Source: Candidatus Saccharimonadales bacterium
GTDB lineage: Bacteria > Patescibacteriota > Saccharimonadia > Saccharimonadales > JACQNP01
NCBI GenBank assembly: GCA_038257245.1
Contig: JBBSJL010000001.1
Span: forward strand, 23,776 to 87,775
DNA: 64,000 nt
Direction of reading: 5' to 3'
A program made the position numbers and the translations under genes. Every line of letters starts with the position of its first letter. Positions within the stretch are counted from its first letter, which is position 1. The notes under the pieces were generated by a model. That model was given only the letters and a program-made list of their open reading frames with translations. It did not search any database and had not been told where the DNA came from. This document shows, in pieces, positions 7,630 to 59,678 of this stretch.

Positions 7630-8340
7630 ATGTCAGTAATATCTAGTTCAGAATCATCATTTACGTCTAATGGTAACGAAATCGAACATTCTCGTAATGT
7701 TTTACAACTTGCAGAGTTAAAAGAAATGCTTGGTGCATACGGGTTAGAAGGTGGCAGTCCAAAAGAGAGATTAGATAGTTTGAGAAATCAAAGTAAGGAA
7801 TCACTGGCATTATTTATGACTGACCTAAATGCACGATTAAATGGTTCAGAGGGTAGTCTGGTTCATGAGGACGCTATGAAAATAGGTGATAAGCAAACCG
7901 TTGCACCAGAGGACAGATATGATTTATTTAGTTCTATAGTTGAAAAGGTTAGAAATTGTCCAGAAGATGTAAATCCAGCACGAGTGGGAGACACTTTAGC
8001 ATTGACGACAGTTTTATTACATCCTTATAAAGATGCCAATGGTCGAACCGCTAGAATGTTTGGATATATATTTCGTGATGATATTGATGGTCTAGATGGA
8101 CAAGAAGATTTTAACACTTTAGTTGAACCTCGTGATCAAGCTCGAGAGCGTGGAGGCTTTACGATTAATGGATACATACCATATGTGGGTGAAGGCACAG
8201 ACCAGTCTGATCCCACAGTGGTATCTGGATATGTTGATAAGCTACTTGCGAGTAATGACACAAGTTTGTACACCAGTCCTTATGGACAAGCTGAGCTAAT
8301 CAAGCCACCCGACAATATTCTGCAAGGTGGAGCTGAATAA
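7630..8340 (+). CDS. Fic/DOC-family protein (putative AMPylase/phosphotransferase)
   Basis: 236 aa with HPYKDANGRTAR, a near match to the Fic core HxFx(D/E)(G/A)NGRxxR. I could find no (S/T)xxxE(G/N) inhibitory motif. Confidence 0.6.
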   Translation: MSVISSSESSFTSNGNEIEHSRNVLQLAELKEMLGAYGLEGGSPKERLDSLRNQSKESLALFMTDLNARLNGSEGSLVHEDAMKIGDKQTVAPEDRYDLFSSIVEKVRNCPEDVNPARVGDTLALTTVLLHPYKDANGRTARMFGYIFRDDIDGLDGQEDFNTLVEPRDQARERGGFTINGYIPYVGEGTDQSDPTVVSGYVDKLLASNDTSLYTSPYGQAELIKPPDNILQGGAE

Positions 8341-9332
8341 TGAACCACGAAGTAGTTAGCCTACACGAGGCAGAACATGGTCCTGAAACACAATTGCCAG
8401 CTAACGTTGAGATTATTGATGGTATGTTGACTGAAGAGTTTACTGCAAAGAGGGCAAAGTGGTTGCAAGATCAAATAGAAGGTCAGTATGACCCGCAAAT
8501 GCGACATATAGGAAAGTTGACTGACAGAATAGACCAGACAAGAGCGGAAGGCTTCAGCGCTTACGATAATCAGGATCAAGAAACATATAAAAAGAAAATA
8601 GAAATAGCAAGCCAAACAAAAGAGTATATGTATAAAACTTTTGGTGCTACGAATGTGCGGGAATTCAACAGGTACAAAGAGGCTGAATATAGACAGCAAA
8701 AAATTGGTACAATTGAGTTTTGGGGAGAAGATTCAGATAGGATATTTGATGAAATAGTTGGATGTACTGAAATAATTGACGATGGCATCGATCGTGAGTT
8801 TAGCGTGCCACCGGCTGACAGAGTCGATCCGAAACGAGAGGATTTCCAAGAATATTTAGGTAATAAAATATTTATCGACCATAGTACTTTACAAAATTAT
8901 GTAGAATCAGATACATCTATAGAGTTAGGATATAAAGAGGGTGCGGGTTATAAGATACCGTTGGCAAATATTGTATCAGCAGGAGGCTTTGATAGTTGGG
9001 CTGGTAGGGGCGTCAATGGTCGTAAAGATGGAATGGACGATAAAGATTATCAGAAAAGCTCGGGAGAACAAGTTATTGGTAGGAGTATAGATGCCATAGC
9101 GGACTACGCATTAAGGGAAACAGAAATTCCACCTATTGAAGGAGTTGATGCCTATGTTCAGCCAAATGGTATAGTAATATTTTCTGTCGGTAATTCAAAC
9201 CATAGGATTGCAGCAGCCGTAGCAAGAGGCCAAGAGTTTATCGAAGTAGATGGTATGGTCAGTATACATAAGTTGGGGCAAAATTTAGTTGAAGCCAAGC
9301 AAGATTTGGATAGTGCCGCGGTTGCAGCGTAA
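8340..9332 (+). CDS. hypothetical protein with C-terminal ParB/Srx-like segment
   Basis: 330 aa, start overlaps the Fic stop by 1 nt (TAATG). The C-terminus PIEGVDAYVQPNGIVIFSVGNSNHRIAAAVARGQEFIEV resembles the ParB N-terminal/sulfiredoxin fold (..G.HR..AA...G...I). The N-terminal 230 aa are unassigned. Confidence 0.4.
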   Translation: MNHEVVSLHEAEHGPETQLPANVEIIDGMLTEEFTAKRAKWLQDQIEGQYDPQMRHIGKLTDRIDQTRAEGFSAYDNQDQETYKKKIEIASQTKEYMYKTFGATNVREFNRYKEAEYRQQKIGTIEFWGEDSDRIFDEIVGCTEIIDDGIDREFSVPPADRVDPKREDFQEYLGNKIFIDHSTLQNYVESDTSIELGYKEGAGYKIPLANIVSAGGFDSWAGRGVNGRKDGMDDKDYQKSSGEQVIGRSIDAIADYALRETEIPPIEGVDAYVQPNGIVIFSVGNSNHRIAAAVARGQEFIEVDGMVSIHKLGQNLVEAKQDLDSAAVAA

Positions 9333-21455: not shown

Positions 21456-21932
21456 TTATAGATAGTTGAATATTTTGGTTTGTTGATTATCTAAGTTATT
21501 GAAATTTTCAGTGGTTAAGAACTTTGGTAGTATGTGGTTTTTGGATGGATCTACAAAGTCAATTTCTTCTATTTCTTCCTCGCCGTGAGTCGTGTTTAAT
21601 AAATCGATATTGACATAGTCTTGGGGGTTAAGAACGTTAAAGAAAAGCTCAAATTGTTCGTTGCCAGTATCTTTTTCCTTGAACTGCTGAATATATAGTA
21701 AGTTACCAACTTTTGGTTTTACTCCGGTTTCTTCGATCATTTCGCGTTCAAGTGCCGCGTGCGCGGACTCGCCAAAATCTATGCCGCCCCCAGGTGTGCA
21801 CCAGTAGAATTCTCTGGACTTTCTATTGTATGGTTTGAGCCTAACGCAAAGAAGCTTACCTTCTAGTAAAATTATCCCCCGGACAGTTAGACGTCTTTTC
21901 ATCCCACCATTATAACAATAAAACGCATTCAT
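21456..21932 (-). CDS. NUDIX hydrolase
   Basis: Nudix box GGGIDFGESAHAALEREMIEETGV. The true start may be the internal Met (MKRRLTV, 21902). Confidence 0.85.
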   Translation of the reverse strand: MNAFYCYNGGMKRRLTVRGIILLEGKLLCVRLKPYNRKSREFYWCTPGGGIDFGESAHAALEREMIEETGVKPKVGNLLYIQQFKEKDTGNEQFELFFNVLNPQDYVNIDLLNTTHGEEEIEEIDFVDPSKNHILPKFLTTENFNNLDNQQTKIFNYL

Positions 21933-21986: not shown

Positions 21987-22640
21987 ATGAGTGATCCACA
22001 TATTGGTGGTTTTCCTGATTTTGAAATGAGCCTTGGTAGCCACGAAGTAGAAGAATTTCGTGATAGTGTTGTTTTTCGGTCTATAGATAGATTATGGGGT
22101 GGTTCTTTCATAAATGAAGCAGTGCCTACGGACCAAGTAGAAATTAAAAAAACTGTAATTGGTCCAGACGAGACAACAAAATTGACACTGGGAGGGTACT
22201 GTATATTAGATCAAATCGAGCCTGAATCAGACGAAGTAGTAGCACACGTAGCACATGTTGGAGTGGATGACTTGCAGCCCACAGAAATGGTGCAAGACCT
22301 GGCTGAGCAGATTAAATGCGAATACGAATTACAAGGTCTAGACACGTGTTTAGTTGAAGACCTGGACGGCGCTACAGTATGGATGAGCCGGAACTACGAT
22401 TTCTTCGCAGGCAACGGCAGTACTATATTGGAAGTAGAACATGCGTATCTATTGATGGACTTGGACGGTGACTACATATATGATCCGCGACTTAATTTGT
22501 ATACCCCAAAGGATACGAGCGACTGCACAGAAAAATTTTTCGAAATTGTAGAAGAGCTGGGCTTAAATGATTCTGTTTTGAAAGTCGAAGATACGCTTAG
22601 AATCAGAACAGCATTATCGATGTTAGGTTTAGGTGCGTAA
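21987..22640 (+). CDS. hypothetical acidic protein
   Basis: 217 aa, strongly acidic (D/E-rich), no motif recognised. First gene of a three-ORF cassette. Confidence 0.5.
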   Translation: MSDPHIGGFPDFEMSLGSHEVEEFRDSVVFRSIDRLWGGSFINEAVPTDQVEIKKTVIGPDETTKLTLGGYCILDQIEPESDEVVAHVAHVGVDDLQPTEMVQDLAEQIKCEYELQGLDTCLVEDLDGATVWMSRNYDFFAGNGSTILEVEHAYLLMDLDGDYIYDPRLNLYTPKDTSDCTEKFFEIVEELGLNDSVLKVEDTLRIRTALSMLGLGA

Positions 22641-22644
22641 TACA

Positions 22645-23229
22645 ATGTTGCATGCTAAGAATTGCTTTGAGGCTGTCAAGGATATAGATACTGTTATTCG
22701 GGGGAGTCTAGACCCTAGCCAACGTTATTTTGCTGTAGGCGGTATCGCAACTAGTGCTATTAGGCACGAGGACACGAATTATGATTTTAGACAAAGGTTA
22801 GTCGTGCCAAGCCCAGAAGCTGCCGATCCAATTTTGCGAGAAAACAGTACCACCAGAGATATTGATTTGATAATCGCTGATGTTATAGAAGATGAGCAAG
22901 CAGAAGAAATTGTTAAGAGAGTTTCTGAAGTTACGCCATTAGTTGTCTCAGTTTTTGGGTTAGATAAGTATAGACCCCCCAGTAAAGCAATCAAGTTAGT
23001 TAATACTGCGACTGATTGGACATCAAGAAGGACTGCAGATGAAGATGGGAATATACGGCTTGAGCTATTTCCTTTAACCCAAGTACTTCAACCAGAATCA
23101 TTTGATCCGTGGACACTTGAATTGCCAGAAACAGATCGAGCTCTAAGCGTTCTGAGTCCTCCGGGGCACATGTTGGCATATAGAAACGATCAATATCCGG
23201 CGTTAGGTTTAAAGACGTTGATAAGTTGA
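22645..23229 (+). CDS. nucleotidyltransferase-fold-like protein, N-terminal part (possibly frameshifted gene)
   Basis: ATG 22645 lies 9 nt after AGGTG (ORF opens at GTG 22633). YFAVGGIATSA ... TRDIDLIIAD resembles the minimal NTase hG[GS]..DxD pattern. The frame ends at TGA 23227-29, while the overlapping frame stays open from 23184. Confidence 0.4.
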   Translation: MLHAKNCFEAVKDIDTVIRGSLDPSQRYFAVGGIATSAIRHEDTNYDFRQRLVVPSPEAADPILRENSTTRDIDLIIADVIEDEQAEEIVKRVSEVTPLVVSVFGLDKYRPPSKAIKLVNTATDWTSRRTADEDGNIRLELFPLTQVLQPESFDPWTLELPETDRALSVLSPPGHMLAYRNDQYPALGLKTLIS

Positions 23230-23516
23230 ACGATATGACCGATAAGGTGATGGCCGTTTCTGAATTTAGGCGAGAGATCTTAGAAGGACGTTTCGTGGAA
23301 TGGTTTAAATTTTCGCAAGCAATATATCAGATTATCGATGGCAAGATGGATCTGAGTGACCTAATGTTGGTAGAGGGAACAACTCAAGCCGACCTAAATA
23401 GGCTTAGTGTTAAAGGAAGAGCTCTACGTAGACTAGAAAGCGACCCTCATTTAATTAAGTTGGCTCAATCTCCTTTCGGAGAAAAAGCTCTCAGCCCATT
23501 TACTCGAACGAAGTAG
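23226..23516 (+). CDS. hypothetical helical protein (possibly the C-terminal part of 22645-23229)
   Basis: 96-aa ORF overlapping the upstream stop. Its frame is open upstream to 23184 (KRSISGVRFKDVDKLNDM...). Confidence 0.4.
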   Translation: MNDMTDKVMAVSEFRREILEGRFVEWFKFSQAIYQIIDGKMDLSDLMLVEGTTQADLNRLSVKGRALRRLESDPHLIKLAQSPFGEKALSPFTRTK

Positions 23517-23539: not shown

Positions 23540-24088
23540 ATGAAAGAGCTTACGAGAACACAGTTCGGTAACCCCATACTTAGACAGGTGGCTCGCGAGT
23601 TATCGATCGAAGAAATTGTTTCACCAAAAGCAGGTTACCTTATAAAAAATATGAGGCACACGTTGCTCTTTAAAAAGTTGGGTGTCGGCCTAGCAGCACC
23701 TCAAATTGGCCAGGGGATTGCATTGTCAGTAATTGCTATTCGCCCAACCAAACATCGGCCAAAAACAAAGAACTTCGATCTAGTTATTATCAATCCAAAA
23801 ATCACAAAATGCTTTGGATATAGAACACAAATATGGGAGGGCTGTCTTAGTGCTGGCCCAAGTGGGTTGTTTGCGAAAGTCCCAAGATATAAGAAAGTCG
23901 AGCTCGAGTATATAGATGAAAATGGCAATAAGCATAAAAAAGTTTTTACTGGGTTGCAAGCCCAGGTAATCCAGCACGAAGTTGATCATTTGAAAGGCAG
24001 ATTATTTATGGATCTAGTAAAAGACCCTAAAACGTACGCGACACTTAAAGAATACAAGAGAAGGGTAGTAAGTAAATTACACAAATAG
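23540..24088 (+). CDS. def: peptide deformylase
   Basis: All three PDF motifs are present: GVGLAAPQIG, EGCLS, QHEVDHL. Confidence 0.95.
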   Translation: MKELTRTQFGNPILRQVARELSIEEIVSPKAGYLIKNMRHTLLFKKLGVGLAAPQIGQGIALSVIAIRPTKHRPKTKNFDLVIINPKITKCFGYRTQIWEGCLSAGPSGLFAKVPRYKKVELEYIDENGNKHKKVFTGLQAQVIQHEVDHLKGRLFMDLVKDPKTYATLKEYKRRVVSKLHK

Positions 24089-33925: not shown

Positions 33926-35012
33926 GAAACAAAATCCAGACTGTAAGATAGTTTATGTTGGCGAAAGAAACGGTAAATATATTAGTATGCTTGATGGCAA
34001 TGTTGATATTGATGATTTTCGCAGTATTTTTGCTGGCAAGTTCCGACGCTATCATGGTGAGTCATGGTTTAACAGACTGACAGATATAAAAACCCTACTA
34101 TTAAACGTTAGGGACTTTCTATATTTACTCATAGGAACAGCACAGAGCTTGTTAATCGTTAGAAGAATAGACCCAGATGTAATTTTTCTAAAAGGCGGTT
34201 TCGTAGGTGTGCCCATAGGCCTAAGTGGAGCATTTTGGGGTAAGAAGATGGTTACTCACGATTCGGATGCTGCCTCTGGGTTGGCTAATCGACTTATAAG
34301 TCGCTGGGTAATGTATCATGCAACCGCTATGTCAGCCCAATACTATAAATATCCAGGAGAGGCAGTTAAGCACGTCGGGGTGCTGGTCGGGTCTGATTAT
34401 AAATATGTAAGTTCAAAGCTAAGTCATGCATATAGGCAGGAACTGGACATTCCTACTGATGCGAAAGTTTTAATGATTACTGGCGGCAGTCATGGCGCAG
34501 CAGCTATCAATCAGGAAATTGCTAGGTTCGCCATGACTTATCTTAAAAAAGACGATAAATTGCACATGATCCATATAGCCGGCAAGGGCAAGACGGGTGT
34601 TTATGAGGATATATCTCATCCACGCCTACAGATACACGAGCTAGTATCGGACATGTTCAAATATAGTGGTGCCGCTGATGTTATTGTTACTCGAGCGGGG
34701 GCTAACACATTAGCCGAATTTGGTGTTCAGGCAAAATCCTGCGTAGTTGTCCCAAATCCTTTGCTAACTGGCGGCCACCAACTAATAAACGCTGAATATT
34801 TAGCCGCTAATGAAGCAGCTATAATTGTAGATGAAAACACCTTTGGGGAAGAACAGGGAAGTGTTCTCTGGTCTGAAATCGACACATTATTATATAAGGA
34901 CCAGAAACTTGCAAAGAAGCTGGCAGATAATTTCCATACAATAACTATCAAAGATGCAGCAAAGCAGATAGCCAAACTATTAATAAATATTTCAAACGGT
35001 GATGTCGACTGA
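33852..35012 (+). CDS. murG: UDP-GlcNAc:lipid I N-acetylglucosaminyltransferase
   Basis: The GTG start is needed to include the G-loop (ILLTGGGTGGHIMP). It overlaps the ftsW 3' end by 74 nt. C-terminal RAGANTLAE motif. Confidence 0.9.
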   Translation: MKILLTGGGTGGHIMPLLAVAHELKKQNPDCKIVYVGERNGKYISMLDGNVDIDDFRSIFAGKFRRYHGESWFNRLTDIKTLLLNVRDFLYLLIGTAQSLLIVRRIDPDVIFLKGGFVGVPIGLSGAFWGKKMVTHDSDAASGLANRLISRWVMYHATAMSAQYYKYPGEAVKHVGVLVGSDYKYVSSKLSHAYRQELDIPTDAKVLMITGGSHGAAAINQEIARFAMTYLKKDDKLHMIHIAGKGKTGVYEDISHPRLQIHELVSDMFKYSGAADVIVTRAGANTLAEFGVQAKSCVVVPNPLLTGGHQLINAEYLAANEAAIIVDENTFGEEQGSVLWSEIDTLLYKDQKLAKKLADNFHTITIKDAAKQIAKLLINISNGDVD

Positions 35013-35941
35013 TGTTGGGTAAAAAGAAAAATAATAATATCAAGACTCGGCAAGGCAGAAAAGCTCCATCTTCTGCGCAGAACGGCAAAAATAATAACAA
35101 GGTATTCTCGTACTACTCGAGTCGTTCCCAGATAGAAACTGCCCGACCACGCAACGACACTTTTGATCAAAAAACCAAGACATCCAACAGAGACCTCAGA
35201 CATATCCCAACTCTGTTTGCGTTACTTGTAATTGTTTTTTCGATAGGATATGCAACGATGATCAATACGGCTAATCCCAAAATTGTTCCATTGTCACCAA
35301 CGTCAATATCTATACTAAAGCAGACAGACTATTACCAACAGAGCTTCGAGGATATATTGAGTGAAAGCATTATGAGTAAATCAAAAATAACGATTGATAC
35401 CAAAGATCTAGAGAAAAAAATACTCAAAAAACACCCTGAACTACAAGATGTTTCAATCAACATCCCCCTTGTTAGCAAAAGGCCAGTTATTCAAATAAGT
35501 CCTGCTATCCCAGTTCTGATAATAACCTCAAATACAGGAGAGTTTGTCATAGGTGATAACGGTAAAGTTCTTATGAATATGTCAGAAGTCCCAGAAAACC
35601 AATACCAGGGATTGATAAGGGTAAAAGACAGTGTTATAAGTGATATTGGCGTAGGCGAAACAGTTTTACCCCTTTCGACGTTAGAGTTCATAGACGACAT
35701 AAAATATCAGTTTCAACAGAGAAACTTCGAAGCTGAATATATAGAATTACCCGCAATAGCTAACGAACTACATGTTAGACCCAGAGGGGAAGGGTACATA
35801 GTTAAATATAATCTACAGATTGATGCCAGGGAACAGACTGGTGTTTACTTTACGCTTCTAGATAAGTTAAAAGCTGAATCAGCTGCATTGCCAAAGGAAT
35901 ACATAGACGTCCGCATAGAGTCCAGGGCATATTATAAGTAA
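35012..35941 (+). CDS. ftsQ: FtsQ/DivIB-like cell-division protein
   Basis: Start overlaps the murG stop. Basic cytoplasmic N-terminus, single TM helix, POTRA-like ectodomain. The call is largely positional. Confidence 0.6.
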   Translation: MLGKKKNNNIKTRQGRKAPSSAQNGKNNNKVFSYYSSRSQIETARPRNDTFDQKTKTSNRDLRHIPTLFALLVIVFSIGYATMINTANPKIVPLSPTSISILKQTDYYQQSFEDILSESIMSKSKITIDTKDLEKKILKKHPELQDVSINIPLVSKRPVIQISPAIPVLIITSNTGEFVIGDNGKVLMNMSEVPENQYQGLIRVKDSVISDIGVGETVLPLSTLEFIDDIKYQFQQRNFEAEYIELPAIANELHVRPRGEGYIVKYNLQIDAREQTGVYFTLLDKLKAESAALPKEYIDVRIESRAYYK

Positions 35942-36017
35942 GTCCCCGATCCCTCTACCCTGACAGTTCGTAATTTGTTCATATTAGTGTACTTATAAAA
36001 CATACAAAAAAACTATA

Positions 36018-36492
36018 CGATAATGCCAAAAGGGCAGAATGTCAAATATTTATGTAACAACAGCGTAGTGTAGGGGAAAGACCACAAATAATATCAAAGT
36101 AGTGAAAAAGCAAACATTTCACGACAAGGCTGTGGAAAAGTCAAGCATTGCACAAACATACAACATCAAGAGTAGCTACTAAGTATGCCGCCGCCGGCAA
36201 AGCGCAATAGTTAAGCCAGGATCAAGTAAACAGTCAAAAGCAGCGGTTAGTAATAAAAAGTCCCCTACGCAGGCGGGTATAAGTTATCAACTATTAACAG
36301 GTATTGCGAGTCGCAAAAGGTATATTGTGCGACATCATGTCTATGTGTATGTTTGTTGTTTTGGTATTGCTGCCTGCCACGTTGTCTCCGTGTTAGTCTC
36401 GATTACCTAAGCTTATTTGCTTTCTCTATCACTTGCCCTACTTAGTGCCCAGCTGTTACGTTCTTGGTTGTTGTCATTGTTTTAGTTTATCG
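36018..36492. repeat. ~475-nt element: two collinear imperfect inverted-repeat arms (36018-36162; 36346-36492) around a ~180-nt G+C-richer core
   Basis: Collinear complementary blocks:
- CGATAA 36018 / TTATCG 36487
- GTAACA 36054 / TGTTAC 36454
- GTAGGG 36070 / CCCTAC 36436
- AGTGA 36101 / TCACT 36429
- AAAGCAAA 36107 / TTTGCTTT 36416
- GTGG 36132 / CCAC 36377
- ACAAACATACA 36152 / TGTATGTTTGT 36346. Confidence 0.6.
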
Positions 36493-36697
36493 AAAAAAAA
36501 TAGTTGGTGTTTGGTGTTCGTAAAATGTTCTTAGTTATGAAATTATCTTTTTGCTAGTATTGTTGAGCGGTTACTTCAAGTACATTATCCGTGCGTGTCA
36601 GAACCTCTTTAAACGATGCGGTTTCATAGTAACCCGAGTAGTCTAAATATATGTATCGTAAAAATGTTGGCTCGTCGGAATCGAGTGACCCACAATT

Positions 36698-36724
36698 ACT
36701 GAGACGAACGATGTTCGTCTCAGT
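36698..36724 (-). terminator. perfect 12-bp hairpin downstream of the sigma-r4/HARE-HTH gene (possible terminator, no U-tract)
   Basis: ACTGAGACGAAC (36698-709), loop GAT, GTTCGTCTCAGT (36713-24). Lies ~60 nt past the stop codon of 36783-37835. Confidence 0.4.
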
Positions 36725-36782
36725 ATCAAATTCAGGAAGTTCTAGCCTTAAATAGCGTACTTGCTTGATGTGCCATTACTTT

Positions 36783-37835
36783 TTAAGCTATGGTGTATGT
36801 TGCTTTGGCTGTTCGTTTGAACTGCAGCTTACCTTGTAGATTCAATAGGATAGTCGTTTCTTTAACGTAGCGGCTTTTTAGAACTTCTTTAACGATTTCG
36901 TCTCGGTGCATTGGTTTGCCAGTTTTTTGTAGCACTTCTGTTATGACGTCGGCGACAGTCCCTTTGCTATAACCCCATTCTCTTAGTGCGTATATCCCAC
37001 GGCCGATAAGAACAAATCGTTTATCTTTGATAAGTTCGTTGTGAATTGCTTGTGTAGTTACATCTTTGCGTTTAAATTCAGAATCTTTAATGGCAGCAGC
37101 AATTTCGTTGAAGTGCATGTACTTACCATTTTCGCTAAGTATTACGTAGATCTTATCTCGAATATTCTTAGGGTTAACTAGCGGCCATTTGATAAGCCCC
37201 CAACGATCGTTAAGGGTAGCTAGTTTTTTAGAAGTAGATGCAAGTGCCCGAGTATTAGAAACATCCTTAAGTCCAGCCGCTTCAGATACTTCTCCAATAG
37301 AAGCTGGTTTAGCGAGTTTCTTAATTGCGTCGATTACCTTAATTACGTTTGCCTTAATTTTCTTTTCATCGTTAATCTTCTTTACGCCCACAGAAAGGTA
37401 GAAATTATCGTTCTCGTCAATTACTGCAATTTCTGGGCAAAGTGCTGACAGGAATGAGACTTTAGAATAATCTGTCTTCACTGCGGTTTTTATAATGACT
37501 GCAGTTAGATCAGTAATTCTGGATACGCCACCCAGTGTAGCTATGTGGTCTGTAAGAGTTTTTTGTACATCATTGATATGAGGAAGTTTCCCCTGCTCTG
37601 CTTGGGCTCGCATTCGAGTTAATATGGCTTTCTCAAGCTGTCGTACACGTTCCCTAGTGATACCCAGTAATTCACCAATTTGTTCGAGTGTTTCTCGTCT
37701 GTCGTATAAACCAAAACGACGTGAAATAATTTCTCGCTCACGTTCTCTATCAATTGACCCCAACACGTCTTTAATAATACCGTCTAGATTTAATTGATTT
37801 GTCGCTACTTCAGCCATATTGTTCCTTTTCCTCAT
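36783..37835 (-). CDS. sigma-70 region-4 HTH + tandem HARE-HTH domain protein
   Basis: The N-terminal segment ETLEQIGELLGITRERVRQLEKAIL is sigma region 4.2-like. Two C-terminal HARE-HTH-like units (YMHFNEIAAAI...RFVLIGRGIYALREWGY; GKPMHRDEIVKEVL...). No region 2 was seen. A likelier start is ATG 37817, after AGGAAAAGGA. Confidence 0.7.
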   Translation of the reverse strand: MRKRNNMAEVATNQLNLDGIIKDVLGSIDREREREIISRRFGLYDRRETLEQIGELLGITRERVRQLEKAILTRMRAQAEQGKLPHINDVQKTLTDHIATLGGVSRITDLTAVIIKTAVKTDYSKVSFLSALCPEIAVIDENDNFYLSVGVKKINDEKKIKANVIKVIDAIKKLAKPASIGEVSEAAGLKDVSNTRALASTSKKLATLNDRWGLIKWPLVNPKNIRDKIYVILSENGKYMHFNEIAAAIKDSEFKRKDVTTQAIHNELIKDKRFVLIGRGIYALREWGYSKGTVADVITEVLQKTGKPMHRDEIVKEVLKSRYVKETTILLNLQGKLQFKRTAKATYTIA

Positions 37836-54291: not shown

Positions 54292-55572
54292 TTAACGGAT
54301 TTTTACTTTGGGGAGTTCATCCCAGTGTGTAACGTAGCGGGGGCTACGTAGTAGGTATTTGGGTTGCCACTTGTCCCCCAACTTTTCAGCCGCGTAACCA
54401 ATATGCTCTTTGCCAAACCGTTCGTTGATGTTGTCGATAGTCTGCATACGTCGATTCGATCTATTAATCGCTTGGGGTTTGACATCACCTAGCAAATCTA
54501 TTTGGACTAGGTCTTGTGGAACGAAATCGTAAAGACATATACCAGCGCGGTGGTAGTAGGCAGAAGAACTGAATATTTCTTCTAGAGCATTAACAACAGC
54601 TTTTATTAGGGTACCAGTATCATTTGTAGGGGCTGATAGTTTAATTTCTGTTTGCCATGTCTTGTACCCGGGTTTATGTCTGTTACTAGTCATAAAAATA
54701 CTGATACGTTTGGCTACTTGCTTACTTTTACGTAGCTGCTGACTAGCGCGTACAACAAAACTAGCTATAGCAGATTCCATAACATCAAAACTGTTGGTAT
54801 CTTCACCAAACGTTCTGGTTCGGGCGATACTTTTGCAGGGTTTACCAATTATTTCCAAAGGCAAGCATGGTATACCCTTTAGCTCGCTAATCATCTGTGC
54901 CCCATGAACTCCCACAATGCTTCTAGCCAGCTCTGGGCGCATTCTAGATAGGTCTAGGGCAGTCAATACGCCAGTAGCTTGGAGCTGTGGTGCTAATCTT
55001 CTACCCACGCCCCATACTTCGCCTACAGCCATTTTAGATAATGCTTCTGTTTGTAATGCCTGACCCTGCAAGTTTACAACGCCATTTGAACCAGAGGTTT
55101 TCTTGGCTTGCTCGGCGGCTAGTTTTGCCAGGGTTTTGGTAGGAGCTATACCAATCGACACAGGTACTCCCACCCATTCGAGGATCTTTTGCCTTAGAGT
55201 TGTTCCCCACTCCTCGTAACTTTGTATGTCTAGCTGGCTGAGATCCAGAAAAGATTCATCTACTGAATAGACTTCTATGCGAGGAGTGACTGACGATAAT
55301 ATGCCAATGATACGTCGAGATATATCGCTGTAAAGCGAAAAGTTAGCCGAAAATGAAATGACATTGTTTTTCTGAAAGACGCTTCGATATTTGAAGGCGG
55401 GAGCTCCCATTGGTATGCCTAGGGCTTTGGCCTCATTGCTGCGCGCCACAGCGCAACCATCATTGCTAGACAGCACAACTACGGGTTTGCCTTCCAGGTC
55501 AGGGCGGAATATACGCTCACAGCTGACAAAGAAGTTGTTGCAGTCCACCAGCGCAAAAACAGGTGTATTCAT
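54292..55572 (-). CDS. umuC: Y-family translesion DNA polymerase (UmuC-like)
   Basis: FALVDCNNFFVSCERIFRPDLEGKPVVVLSSNDGCAVARS is the UmuC/DinB N-terminal signature. SVDESFLD catalytic motif. Confidence 0.9.
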   Translation of the reverse strand: MNTPVFALVDCNNFFVSCERIFRPDLEGKPVVVLSSNDGCAVARSNEAKALGIPMGAPAFKYRSVFQKNNVISFSANFSLYSDISRRIIGILSSVTPRIEVYSVDESFLDLSQLDIQSYEEWGTTLRQKILEWVGVPVSIGIAPTKTLAKLAAEQAKKTSGSNGVVNLQGQALQTEALSKMAVGEVWGVGRRLAPQLQATGVLTALDLSRMRPELARSIVGVHGAQMISELKGIPCLPLEIIGKPCKSIARTRTFGEDTNSFDVMESAIASFVVRASQQLRKSKQVAKRISIFMTSNRHKPGYKTWQTEIKLSAPTNDTGTLIKAVVNALEEIFSSSAYYHRAGICLYDFVPQDLVQIDLLGDVKPQAINRSNRRMQTIDNINERFGKEHIGYAAEKLGDKWQPKYLLRSPRYVTHWDELPKVKIR

Positions 55573-55932
55573 TCAAAATTTCCTATAGCGATGAATGATA
55601 GCAGTCACGACACCCCACACAATGGACTGCTTTGGCAGTTCATTGGTATGGGAAATCGAGAACGCATCATTATGTATCCAGACAATTTTGTCACTTTGTT
55701 TTACTTTTAGCGCCCGGTCAATCAGGGCCACATCACCACTAAATATCCCCAAGTCAGACCACTCATTCCCCTCAATGTTCATCATAAAGGTACTAGCACT
55801 GTGCCATATCAATAGACTGTTTAAATCGAGGTTCTTTATATTTACATCAGTTGCAGGGTTTGGAAAACCACTATGAACTGATATGCCCGTAGAATCATCC
55901 ATGCCTATTACCGTGTGCCTACTAGAGTCCAT
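55573..55932 (-). CDS. UmuD-like S24-fold protein lacking the Ser/Lys catalytic dyad
   Basis: Collinear with E. coli UmuD (SGFPNPATD...LDLNSLLIWHSASTFMM...). GDSM is replaced by GNEW and the TVKK Lys region by SISHT. Its stop abuts the umuC ATG (TGAATG). Confidence 0.65.
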   Translation of the reverse strand: MDSSRHTVIGMDDSTGISVHSGFPNPATDVNIKNLDLNSLLIWHSASTFMMNIEGNEWSDLGIFSGDVALIDRALKVKQSDKIVWIHNDAFSISHTNELPKQSIVWGVVTAIIHRYRKF

Positions 55933-58379: not shown

Positions 58380-59678
58380 CTAAGGCGTAAAGCCAACTGA
58401 CCCATCTAGTTCAACCGCGCTGATCCAAGTATTGCCTCTATTTAGAGGGATCACAGCTTCATTAGCTGCTTTAAATATCATAGGGCTTTTGCGGTCTTTT
58501 TTCTCCCATTTGCCAACTGTGACTGTGCCATCTTGAAAAATAAAGGCCTTCCCACTTCCACTGGTGCCGTAGATTGTATGCACACCATCGGGGTGAATAC
58601 TCTTTGGCATGATTGCGGCAATAACTACTTTTGGCGTAATTTGTTGTCCGGTTTTTTCATCTACATGGGGTTTGCCCGCTTGGCTGCGCACATATGAGTT
58701 GGTCGTTACATCATAGTCGTAGTGTGGGTTATATAAAAAACTAGATATGTTGAAATCAATCGTTTTGGCATTCGGTGTTGCTATTGGAGAGTCGTCTTTG
58801 CGCCCCCAGCCAGTAAAAGTGCTAGTACTCCAATCTTTAGAGTTTTGTAACTCCAATAGTTTGGCACGGCTCGTATAAACATTATGAGGTGCATAACGGT
58901 TACTAACTCGCTGATAGTAGTTACTGTTAAACCCATAGTCTAGGTCTTTTAAACCTTCGTTTCGAATTTGTGCTAATGCTTCAGCGCTTCCCCCAACATG
59001 GGCTACCGGGGCGTCAAAAGGCACTAACCAATCAAGGTAATATGGCCGTACGCTTCTAATTGGTCCAATATATTCAGGCTGAGATTCTTGAAATAAAGTC
59101 AGGAACCGCGTAATACCACCTTCTGCTACGGCTTCGTATACCACCCCAGCGTCTTTTAACCCTGCTTGTGGCCTAGCATCTGGGCTGTTTTCTATCATTA
59201 CTGCTGTTACTGGCAGAGCTGATTCGGATTCAGTAACCTTTGCCCCTGTTAGATTTGAATTAAATACTTTAGGTTTAGGGGGTACTACAACTTCTACAAC
59301 TTCCACCGATTCCACGGGCTTAGGTTTATGTGTTAGCTTCCAAACAAGAAGACTTACACCGATTAGTACTAACGCCGATACGATACCTATTATGATCCAT
59401 TGTTTTTTGGATAAATCAGGCAGCCTGAATCTACCCTTGCCCTTTTTACTGTGTTTACCTTTGGGTTCAAAGTCTATTTTTTTGGGAGTTGGTGTCTTTA
59501 TCGGTTCCGGATTAGGAGCAGTTGCTTCGTTGGAAAATTGGCTAACAGAGTAGGATTTATCAACGTCTTCAGGGGGCCGAAAGTCAGGTTCTGCTATGTC
59601 GTTACTCTCTGTTTGTTCTAGGTCATCTCTAGAGCCATCCGGATTATTTGACCCCGGGGCAGCAAAATCATCAATCAT
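58380..59678 (-). CDS. membrane-anchored DUF3048-family protein
   Basis: 432 aa. Acidic/basic N-terminus, one TM helix, then MIENSPDARPQAGLKDAGVVYEAVAEGGITRFLTLF, typical of DUF3048 (YerB-like). Confidence 0.7.
   Translation of the reverse strand: MIDDFAAPGSNNPDGSRDDLEQTESNDIAEPDFRPPEDVDKSYSVSQFSNEATAPNPEPIKTPTPKKIDFEPKGKHSKKGKGRFRLPDLSKKQWIIIGIVSALVLIGVSLLVWKLTHKPKPVESVEVVEVVVPPKPKVFNSNLTGAKVTESESALPVTAVMIENSPDARPQAGLKDAGVVYEAVAEGGITRFLTLFQESQPEYIGPIRSVRPYYLDWLVPFDAPVAHVGGSAEALAQIRNEGLKDLDYGFNSNYYQRVSNRYAPHNVYTSRAKLLELQNSKDWSTSTFTGWGRKDDSPIATPNAKTIDFNISSFLYNPHYDYDVTTNSYVRSQAGKPHVDEKTGQQITPKVVIAAIMPKSIHPDGVHTIYGTSGSGKAFIFQDGTVTVGKWEKKDRKSPMIFKAANEAVIPLNRGNTWISAVELDGSVGFTP

Follow-up and report, generated by a model that had tools for sequence, protein, structure and literature searches.

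An apparent one-base frameshift splits a conserved nucleotidyltransferase-like gene of Saccharibacteria in a Candidatus Saccharimonadales contig

In the Pol-beta nucleotidyltransferase (NTase) superfamily, the hG[GS] motif is canonically separated from the DhD motif by 9-13 residues. The MNT (MntA) proteins of HEPN-MNT modules (5yep, 1no5, 1wot) are about 100-130 aa long, have no helical lobe, and are paired with HEPN proteins. In the DUF1814 family, motif III reads KLxAaxxR and motif IV reads +DxxD (PMC3985639). The catalytic residues of DUF1814 that serve for comparison in this work are those described in PMC10435456. Two overlapping frames that can be joined by a -1 shift are a familiar arrangement from programmed frameshift genes such as dnaX and those of IS3-family transposases. 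The locus described here shares this two-frame layout and codes for a protein that resembles known NTases in its predicted fold.

The locus lies in a stretch of 64,000 nucleotides from a Candidatus Saccharimonadales bacterium (assembly GCA_038257245.1, contig JBBSJL010000001.1), which we refer to as the window. An initial annotation of this DNA had described three ORFs between a NUDIX gene and def. Its ORF coordinates were all verified on the sequence, and Pfam agrees with both flanking genes. ORF2 displays the patterns AVGG (residues 30-33) and RDIDLII (residues 71-77). The earliest start codons in the ORF3 frame are TTG 23226 and ATG 23235. The features of the locus are as follows.

21456-21932, minus strand: NUDIX gene (Pfam).
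21987-22640, plus strand: ORF1, a 217-aa acidic orphan protein.
22633: a GTG upstream of the ORF2 ATG.
22645-23229, plus strand: ORF2, 194 aa, from ATG 22645 to TGA 23227-23229.
22645-23516, plus strand: the whole disrupted gene, Pol-beta-fold nucleotidyltransferase-like by prediction, 290 aa with one base restored.
22645-23184, plus strand: codons 1-180 in the ORF2 frame, predicted alpha/beta NTase core.
22738-22743, plus strand: G32-G33, the hGG motif (motif I).
22855-22866, plus strand: R71-D72-I-D74, the putative metal-binding DxD motif (motif II).
23185-23186, plus strand: the lesion; only two bases (AA) of codon 181 remain.
23185-23229, plus strand: out-of-frame tail of ORF2, NDQYPALGLKTLIS followed by TGA, with no counterpart in any homologue.
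From 23184 to the stop codon TAG 23514-23516, plus strand: ORF3 frame, open directly past TAG 23181-23183.
23187-23225, plus strand: R182-S-I-S-G186-V-R188-F-K190-D191-V-D-K194 motif in the ORF3 frame.
23187-23516, plus strand: codons 182-290 and stop in the ORF3 frame, motif III/IV and predicted C-terminal helical domain, sequence intact.
23540-24088: peptide deformylase gene (def; Pfam), flanking ORF3.

Addition of one base after position 23184 joins the two frames (...PPGHMLAYR-K-RSISGVRFKDVDKLNDM...) and affords a protein of 290 aa. A search with this fused protein returned full-length homologues of 286-295 aa, each encoded by a single ORF and covering 97-100% of the query. The best match, P0002 from a Candidatus Saccharibacteria MAG (295 aa), is 55% identical over 100% of the fused query; the sole 194-aa entry among the matches, P0001, is the window's own ORF2. 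A profile search yielded 53 homologous proteins, almost all of 284-303 aa. For the few whose source is named it is Saccharibacteria or Saccharimonadales, with the exception of P0038 (Verrucomicrobiae). When 1.84 billion representatives were searched exhaustively with HMMER, 339 clusters matched (E ≤ 1e-3; 137 of them at E ≤ 1e-30), almost all of them 270-335 aa long and with a match that spans the break point. The homologue alignment is ungapped at the junction, with AYRMRSISGVRYKD conserved across the break, and the fused reading ...GHMLAYRKRSISGVRFKDVDKL... aligns with ...GHMLAYRMRSISGVRYKDKEKL... of the homologues. Since the homologues match over their whole length and bridge the junction, the split between ORF2 and ORF3 does not reflect a chance juxtaposition. 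Judged by these alignments, ORF2 and ORF3 are the two halves of one ancestral gene for a protein of about 290 residues. The initial annotation had proposed just this, one gene with a 1-nt frameshift, and both the end-to-end homologues and the codon alignment described below bear it out: the orthologues are single ORFs, not pairs of ORFs with the same boundary. Its statement that the three ORFs are without recognisable orthology can be dismissed, given hundreds of homologues for ORF2 plus ORF3 and one for ORF1. In terms of annotation, two "hypothetical proteins" are to be merged into one frameshifted locus, or the sequence is to be corrected should the reads reveal an error.

A codon alignment with six orthologues locates the break precisely: where L001 reads TAT AGA ATG CGA TCA, the window reads TAT AGA AA- CGA TCA. 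This comparison shows the lesion as an apparent one-base deletion in codon 181. Most simply, an AAA or AAG codon was reduced to AA, shortening an A4 run to A3. We assessed conservation in 166 full-length family members. Near-invariant in this sample are G32 (100%), G33 (99%), D72 (100%), D74 (99%) and R71 (96%); R65, S102, F104, R129, P172 and E265 are also conserved. The most conserved motif of the family, Y179..R182-S183..G186.R188.K190-D191..K194, falls exactly at the break. Residues of the R182-K194 block are 92-99% conserved, and Y179 and R182 are conserved in 98-99% of the 166 members. Translation of the locus as written would leave the frame after R180 and stop 15 codons later. The R182-K194 motif is expressed by neither ORF, because it stands in the ORF3 frame and upstream of the first start codon of ORF3; initiation in the downstream frame could occur only past the conserved motif. 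The expected products are a truncated core that would lack R182, S183, G186, R188, K190, D191 and K194, and at most a helical fragment on its own. In this form the locus is a predicted loss-of-function allele.

What the intact protein may look like was addressed with an AlphaFold2 model of the fused sequence, calculated from a 53-sequence alignment (pLDDT 95, pTM 0.90). Residues ~28-170 form an alpha/beta lobe in the N-terminal part of the model, and residues 172-287 a helical lobe in its C-terminal part. Several hallmarks of the Pol-beta superfamily are found in the model. The core alpha/beta fold resembles that of solved NTases, the hGG motif (A-V-G32-G33) sits between strand 28-31 and helix 33-40, and D72-I-D74-L opens strand 72-80 as expected of an [DE]h[DE]h metal pair. 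The spacing from G33 to D72 departs from the canonical 9-13 residues: it amounts to 38 residues, with two extra short strands inserted. Strand 100-108, where a third carboxylate was sought, contains the conserved residues S102 and F104, a variable D107 and no conserved acidic residue; D191 (99% conserved) may assume the role of the third catalytic carboxylate. Fold comparison ranked the MenT1 toxin highest (8an4, score 8.0, 138 residues, 18% identity), followed by an NTase-like protein (5uvd, 7.2), TM1012 (2ewr, 7.0), TglT/MenT3 (6j7n, 6.8), LnuA (4wh5, 6.5), ANT(2'') (4xje, 6.2), MNT (5yep, 6.0) and MenT4 (6y56, 5.2). Foldseek against the PDB gave the same top matches at marginal significance (best E 1.3e-3). 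The model thus shows a predicted NTase fold, with a likeness to known NTases that is confined to the fold level.

At the sequence level, scans of ORF1, ORF2, ORF3 and the fused protein against Pfam, NCBIfam and PADLOC returned nothing significant (E ≤ 1). Pfam searches at E ≤ 10 with 134 members, 53 of them close and 81 distant, produced no more than isolated matches below threshold, profile searches of PDB sequences found no match for the family, and look-ups of family clusters returned no informative names. The initial annotation had assigned ORF2 to the AbiEii/MNT type. This assignment holds insofar as an NTase is recognised at the fold level; the family membership that it implied finds no support, with no Pfam or PADLOC match in 134 members. 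The motifs on which it had been based fared better: hGG and DxD are invariant across the family, and the restored segment carries an R..KD resembling motif III/IV. By these comparisons the family is one without a Pfam model, conserved across Saccharibacteria and usually encoded by a stand-alone gene among housekeeping genes. We infer that the family is probably an active NMP-transferase. As a by-product of this analysis, we thus describe an unnamed family of more than 300 clusters with a confidently predicted Pol-beta NTase fold and the signature GG / RDxD / Y..RS..G.R.KD..K, which occupies a backbone position in Saccharibacteria and is occasionally lost.

Two further broken copies document such losses. 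In L013 (1371-2220), the frame changes between the N- and C-terminal parts, and the break precedes that in the window by about 15 residues; this frameshift is independent of the window's. The other copy, P0086, is a 191-aa form ending in ...AYRTRSITGLRD*, with a nonsense codon at the position of K190 and further stop codons in a decayed tail. It occurs in L014 (3001-3576) and also in L015 and L016. A GNAT-like gene follows 12 nt downstream. The recurrence of this form on 12 contigs that stem from several samples shows it to be real. Together these copies show that the gene is dispensable in some lineages.

The initial annotation had left three explanations for the split: a pseudogene, an assembly error or a slippage-controlled, phase-variable gene. 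The first two remain the live pair, and the third is not supported. Programmed expression, by -1 ribosomal frameshifting, transcriptional slippage or a contingency switch, is favoured only in that a -1 shift at AGA-AAC would restore the protein and a short A run is present at the site. However, this run comprises only A3 (23184-23186; A4 if restored), with no long homopolymer or tandem repeat; the sequence U AGA AAC does not fit the pattern X XXY YYZ of a slippery heptamer, and the P-site codon after a -1 shift would be UAG. The RNA fold of the downstream 125 nt is no better than that of shuffled sequences (z = -0.76), and all orthologues are in frame at the site. We consider programmed expression very improbable. 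Little better are the prospects of a tolerated split, in which the ORF2 core and an ORF3 helical domain started at TTG 23226 or ATG 23235 would form a two-piece enzyme, or the core would act alone like MenT1. The break does fall at the boundary between the alpha/beta and helical lobes of the model, the lesions of the other two broken copies lie no more than about 25 residues away, and P0086 retains an intact 191-aa N-terminal ORF on 12 contigs. Yet seven residues from R182 to K194 that are 92-99% conserved would be present in neither product, the three lesions differ in position and type and so describe no conserved split, and further stop codons in the C-terminal region of L014 indicate decay rather than a second gene. 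Ribosome-binding-site analysis of ORF3 was uninformative, as an SD-like motif of any kind precedes only about one-third of the 58 gene starts here. A tolerated split is in our estimate improbable, and even pooled with recoding it remains an unlikely explanation.

The preferred reading is that of a real and very recent deletion, which would have turned a conserved NTase-fold gene into an ordinary fresh pseudogene; we infer this at about even chance. Its closest competitor, at somewhat less than an even chance, is a gene that is intact in the organism and has lost a base to a sequencing or assembly error in the consensus of this metagenome-derived contig. The 3' half keeps every near-invariant residue, and the ratio of C-part to N-part identity to homologues is 0.824 in the window compared with 0.823 ± 0.055 in intact members. 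A downstream half without decay leaves two options, a lesion of very recent origin or an error of assembly, and an undecayed 3' half with a conservation ratio as in intact genes is just what an error predicts. Also in keeping with an error, only a single base is missing, from a short homopolymer, and more than 130 lineages keep this conserved backbone gene intact. On the other hand, errors do not typically concentrate at A3/A4 runs, and a check of about 35 genes in the 64-kb window revealed no second split gene. All 20 proteins from adjacent same-strand gene pairs belong to distinct, full-length families, 18 of them assigned by Pfam through profile matches of nearly full length, and further neighbours that were checked are intact. 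Since the tested neighbours are distinct and full-length, the assembly does not appear to be prone to indels, which favours a real mutation, as does the genuine loss of the family elsewhere (P0086, L013). No relative of more than 55% identity was found in any collection searched; a search of JGI metagenome contigs found no close relative, and a scan of GTDB genomes returned only distant orthologues. The deletion is therefore without confirmation from a second genome of the species. Set against each other, the two readings leave a real mutation slightly favoured over a consensus error.

The same pairs of neighbouring ORFs also led us to reject an alternative genetic code or read-through of in-frame stop codons, as same-frame neighbours are distinct, complete families. 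One such pair on the minus strand (54292-55932) consists of a Peptidase_S24 protein (UmuD/LexA-like, 119 aa) and, downstream in the same frame, a Y-family polymerase of 426 aa with the domains IMS, IMS_C and DUF4113, a umuDC-like pair in a reduced genome. Gene starts in the window show another trait: a TATAAT-like hexamer ends about 5-10 nt before the ATG of many genes, for example at 1235, 10864, 17661, 31617 and 58380-59678 (minus strand). This proximity suggests leaderless mRNAs or mRNAs with very short leaders. Between the convergent genes 35012-35941 (plus strand) and 36783-37835 (minus strand) lies an 840-bp stretch (35942-36782) that contains no ORF of at least 40 aa, tRNA, Rfam match or repeats. 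Such non-coding DNA is unusually long for such a compact genome and may represent the remains of a gene or encode an RNA not yet described.

The initial annotation had viewed the ORFs as an accessory cassette. In the window the gene order is response regulator, RecO, Na+/H+ exchanger, class II tRNA synthetase, NYN, PIF1 helicase, NUDIX, ORF1, the NTase-like gene, def, chorismate mutase, FMN reductase, GH1 and MraW. The order response regulator, RecO, synthetase and family gene recurs in L008 and L011; L009 has synthetase, family gene and chorismate mutase, L010 has family gene, PIF1, GH1 and MraZ, and def and PIF1 lie near the family gene in L003 and L007. A more distant family member resides among SecA, SerRS, FtsEX and GreA. 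Immediate neighbours vary between loci (tRNA synthetase, Ser hydrolase, divergent genes), with ORF1 in two genomes only, and in the loci fetched no small or HTH-type antitoxin-like gene consistently adjoins the family gene. The base composition around the locus carries no foreign-DNA signature, and a promoter and terminator scan gave background level only. With RecO, class II tRNA synthetase, PIF1 and def recurring around homologues, the cassette view finds no support; on the evidence of gene order, the NTase-like gene is not accessory and belongs to a conserved Saccharimonadales backbone neighbourhood. In the related Saccharibacteria locus L007, a gene with a KwaB (Kiwa defence) domain (7940-8986) lies between def and a glyoxalase gene.

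ORF1 is strongly acidic (pI 4.1, 45 D+E versus 14 K+R). Its sole homologue (216 aa, 31% identity, E 3e-27) is encoded in L001 by the gene immediately ahead of P0002, and a profile search of 5.8 billion proteins yielded two entries only, the window and HKST-UBA71. No homologue is present in the other related loci fetched, ORF1 has no match in Pfam, NCBIfam or PADLOC, and its AlphaFold2 model is unreliable (pLDDT 47). ORF1 is a real but lineage-restricted orphan. The idea that this acidic protein is a partner of the NTase-like protein fits poorly with these data, as ORF1 accompanies the gene in one other genome only and is absent from all other fetched loci.

Two possible functions can be read from the context of the family. 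A class II tRNA synthetase gene (tRNA-synt_2b and HGTP_anticodon domains) lies directly upstream on the same strand in the Saccharimonadales loci L008 (3571-5891), L009 (1-1992) and L011 (4436-6966), and the L011 enzyme is GlyRS-type. Combined with the MenT-like fold, this arrangement is suggestive of a link to tRNA at the level of synteny. Because the family gene is often directly downstream of a GlyRS-type synthetase, we propose that the protein could possibly act on tRNA 3' ends. The second proposal derives from P0093 (522 aa), in which the family protein carries at its C-terminus a CDP-alcohol phosphatidyltransferase domain (PF01066, E 1.7e-11) with the motif DxxDGxxAR...GxxxDxxxD; this is a single case on a short Logan contig of 2,446 bp. 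The fusion may, as a Rosetta stone, connect the family with CDP-alcohol or lipid metabolism, and since one member has this architecture, the family might make a CDP-activated alcohol. That the family is an undescribed, stand-alone housekeeping NTase of MenT/DUF1814-like type whose window copy is still used in two-piece or recoded form seems improbable to us. If the family proved to be a non-toxic MenT relative, it would bear on the origin of tRNA-modifying toxins; this is only a lead.

How does this locus compare with the systems described at the outset? Unlike dnaX, IS3-family transposases and homopolymer phase-variable loci, it has no slippery heptamer, stimulatory structure or long homopolymer, and its frameshift is absent from every orthologue. 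LnuA (4wh5) and ANT(2'') (4xje) share no sequence similarity with the family and have a different C-terminal lobe; the window gene lies in a conserved chromosomal neighbourhood without resistance context or mobile element. In contrast to MNT, it has no HEPN partner and no significant NTP_transf_2 match. The comparison with the DUF1814/AbiEii/MenT proteins (8an4, 6j7n, 6y56) extends to individual motifs. The motif III region of the window protein reads H175-M-L-A-Y179-R-K-R182, and the family has an aromatic-xx-R element (Y179, R182) without the conserved Lys, whose position is taken by H, T, Q, S or V. The last position of the family's KDxxK is Lys in 99% of members, whereas motif IV of DUF1814 ends in Asp, and the spacer from GG to DxD measures 38 residues instead of 15. 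The family also differs in having no PF08843 or PADLOC AbiE match. Where DUF1814 toxins form bicistronic operons with the antitoxin gene upstream, no AbiEi or MenA antitoxin gene adjoins the family gene in about ten contexts; it stands among housekeeping genes, once in each locus fetched. Not a demonstrable member of DUF1814 despite a similar architecture, this family is a distinct and as yet unnamed branch of the Pol-beta NTase superfamily.
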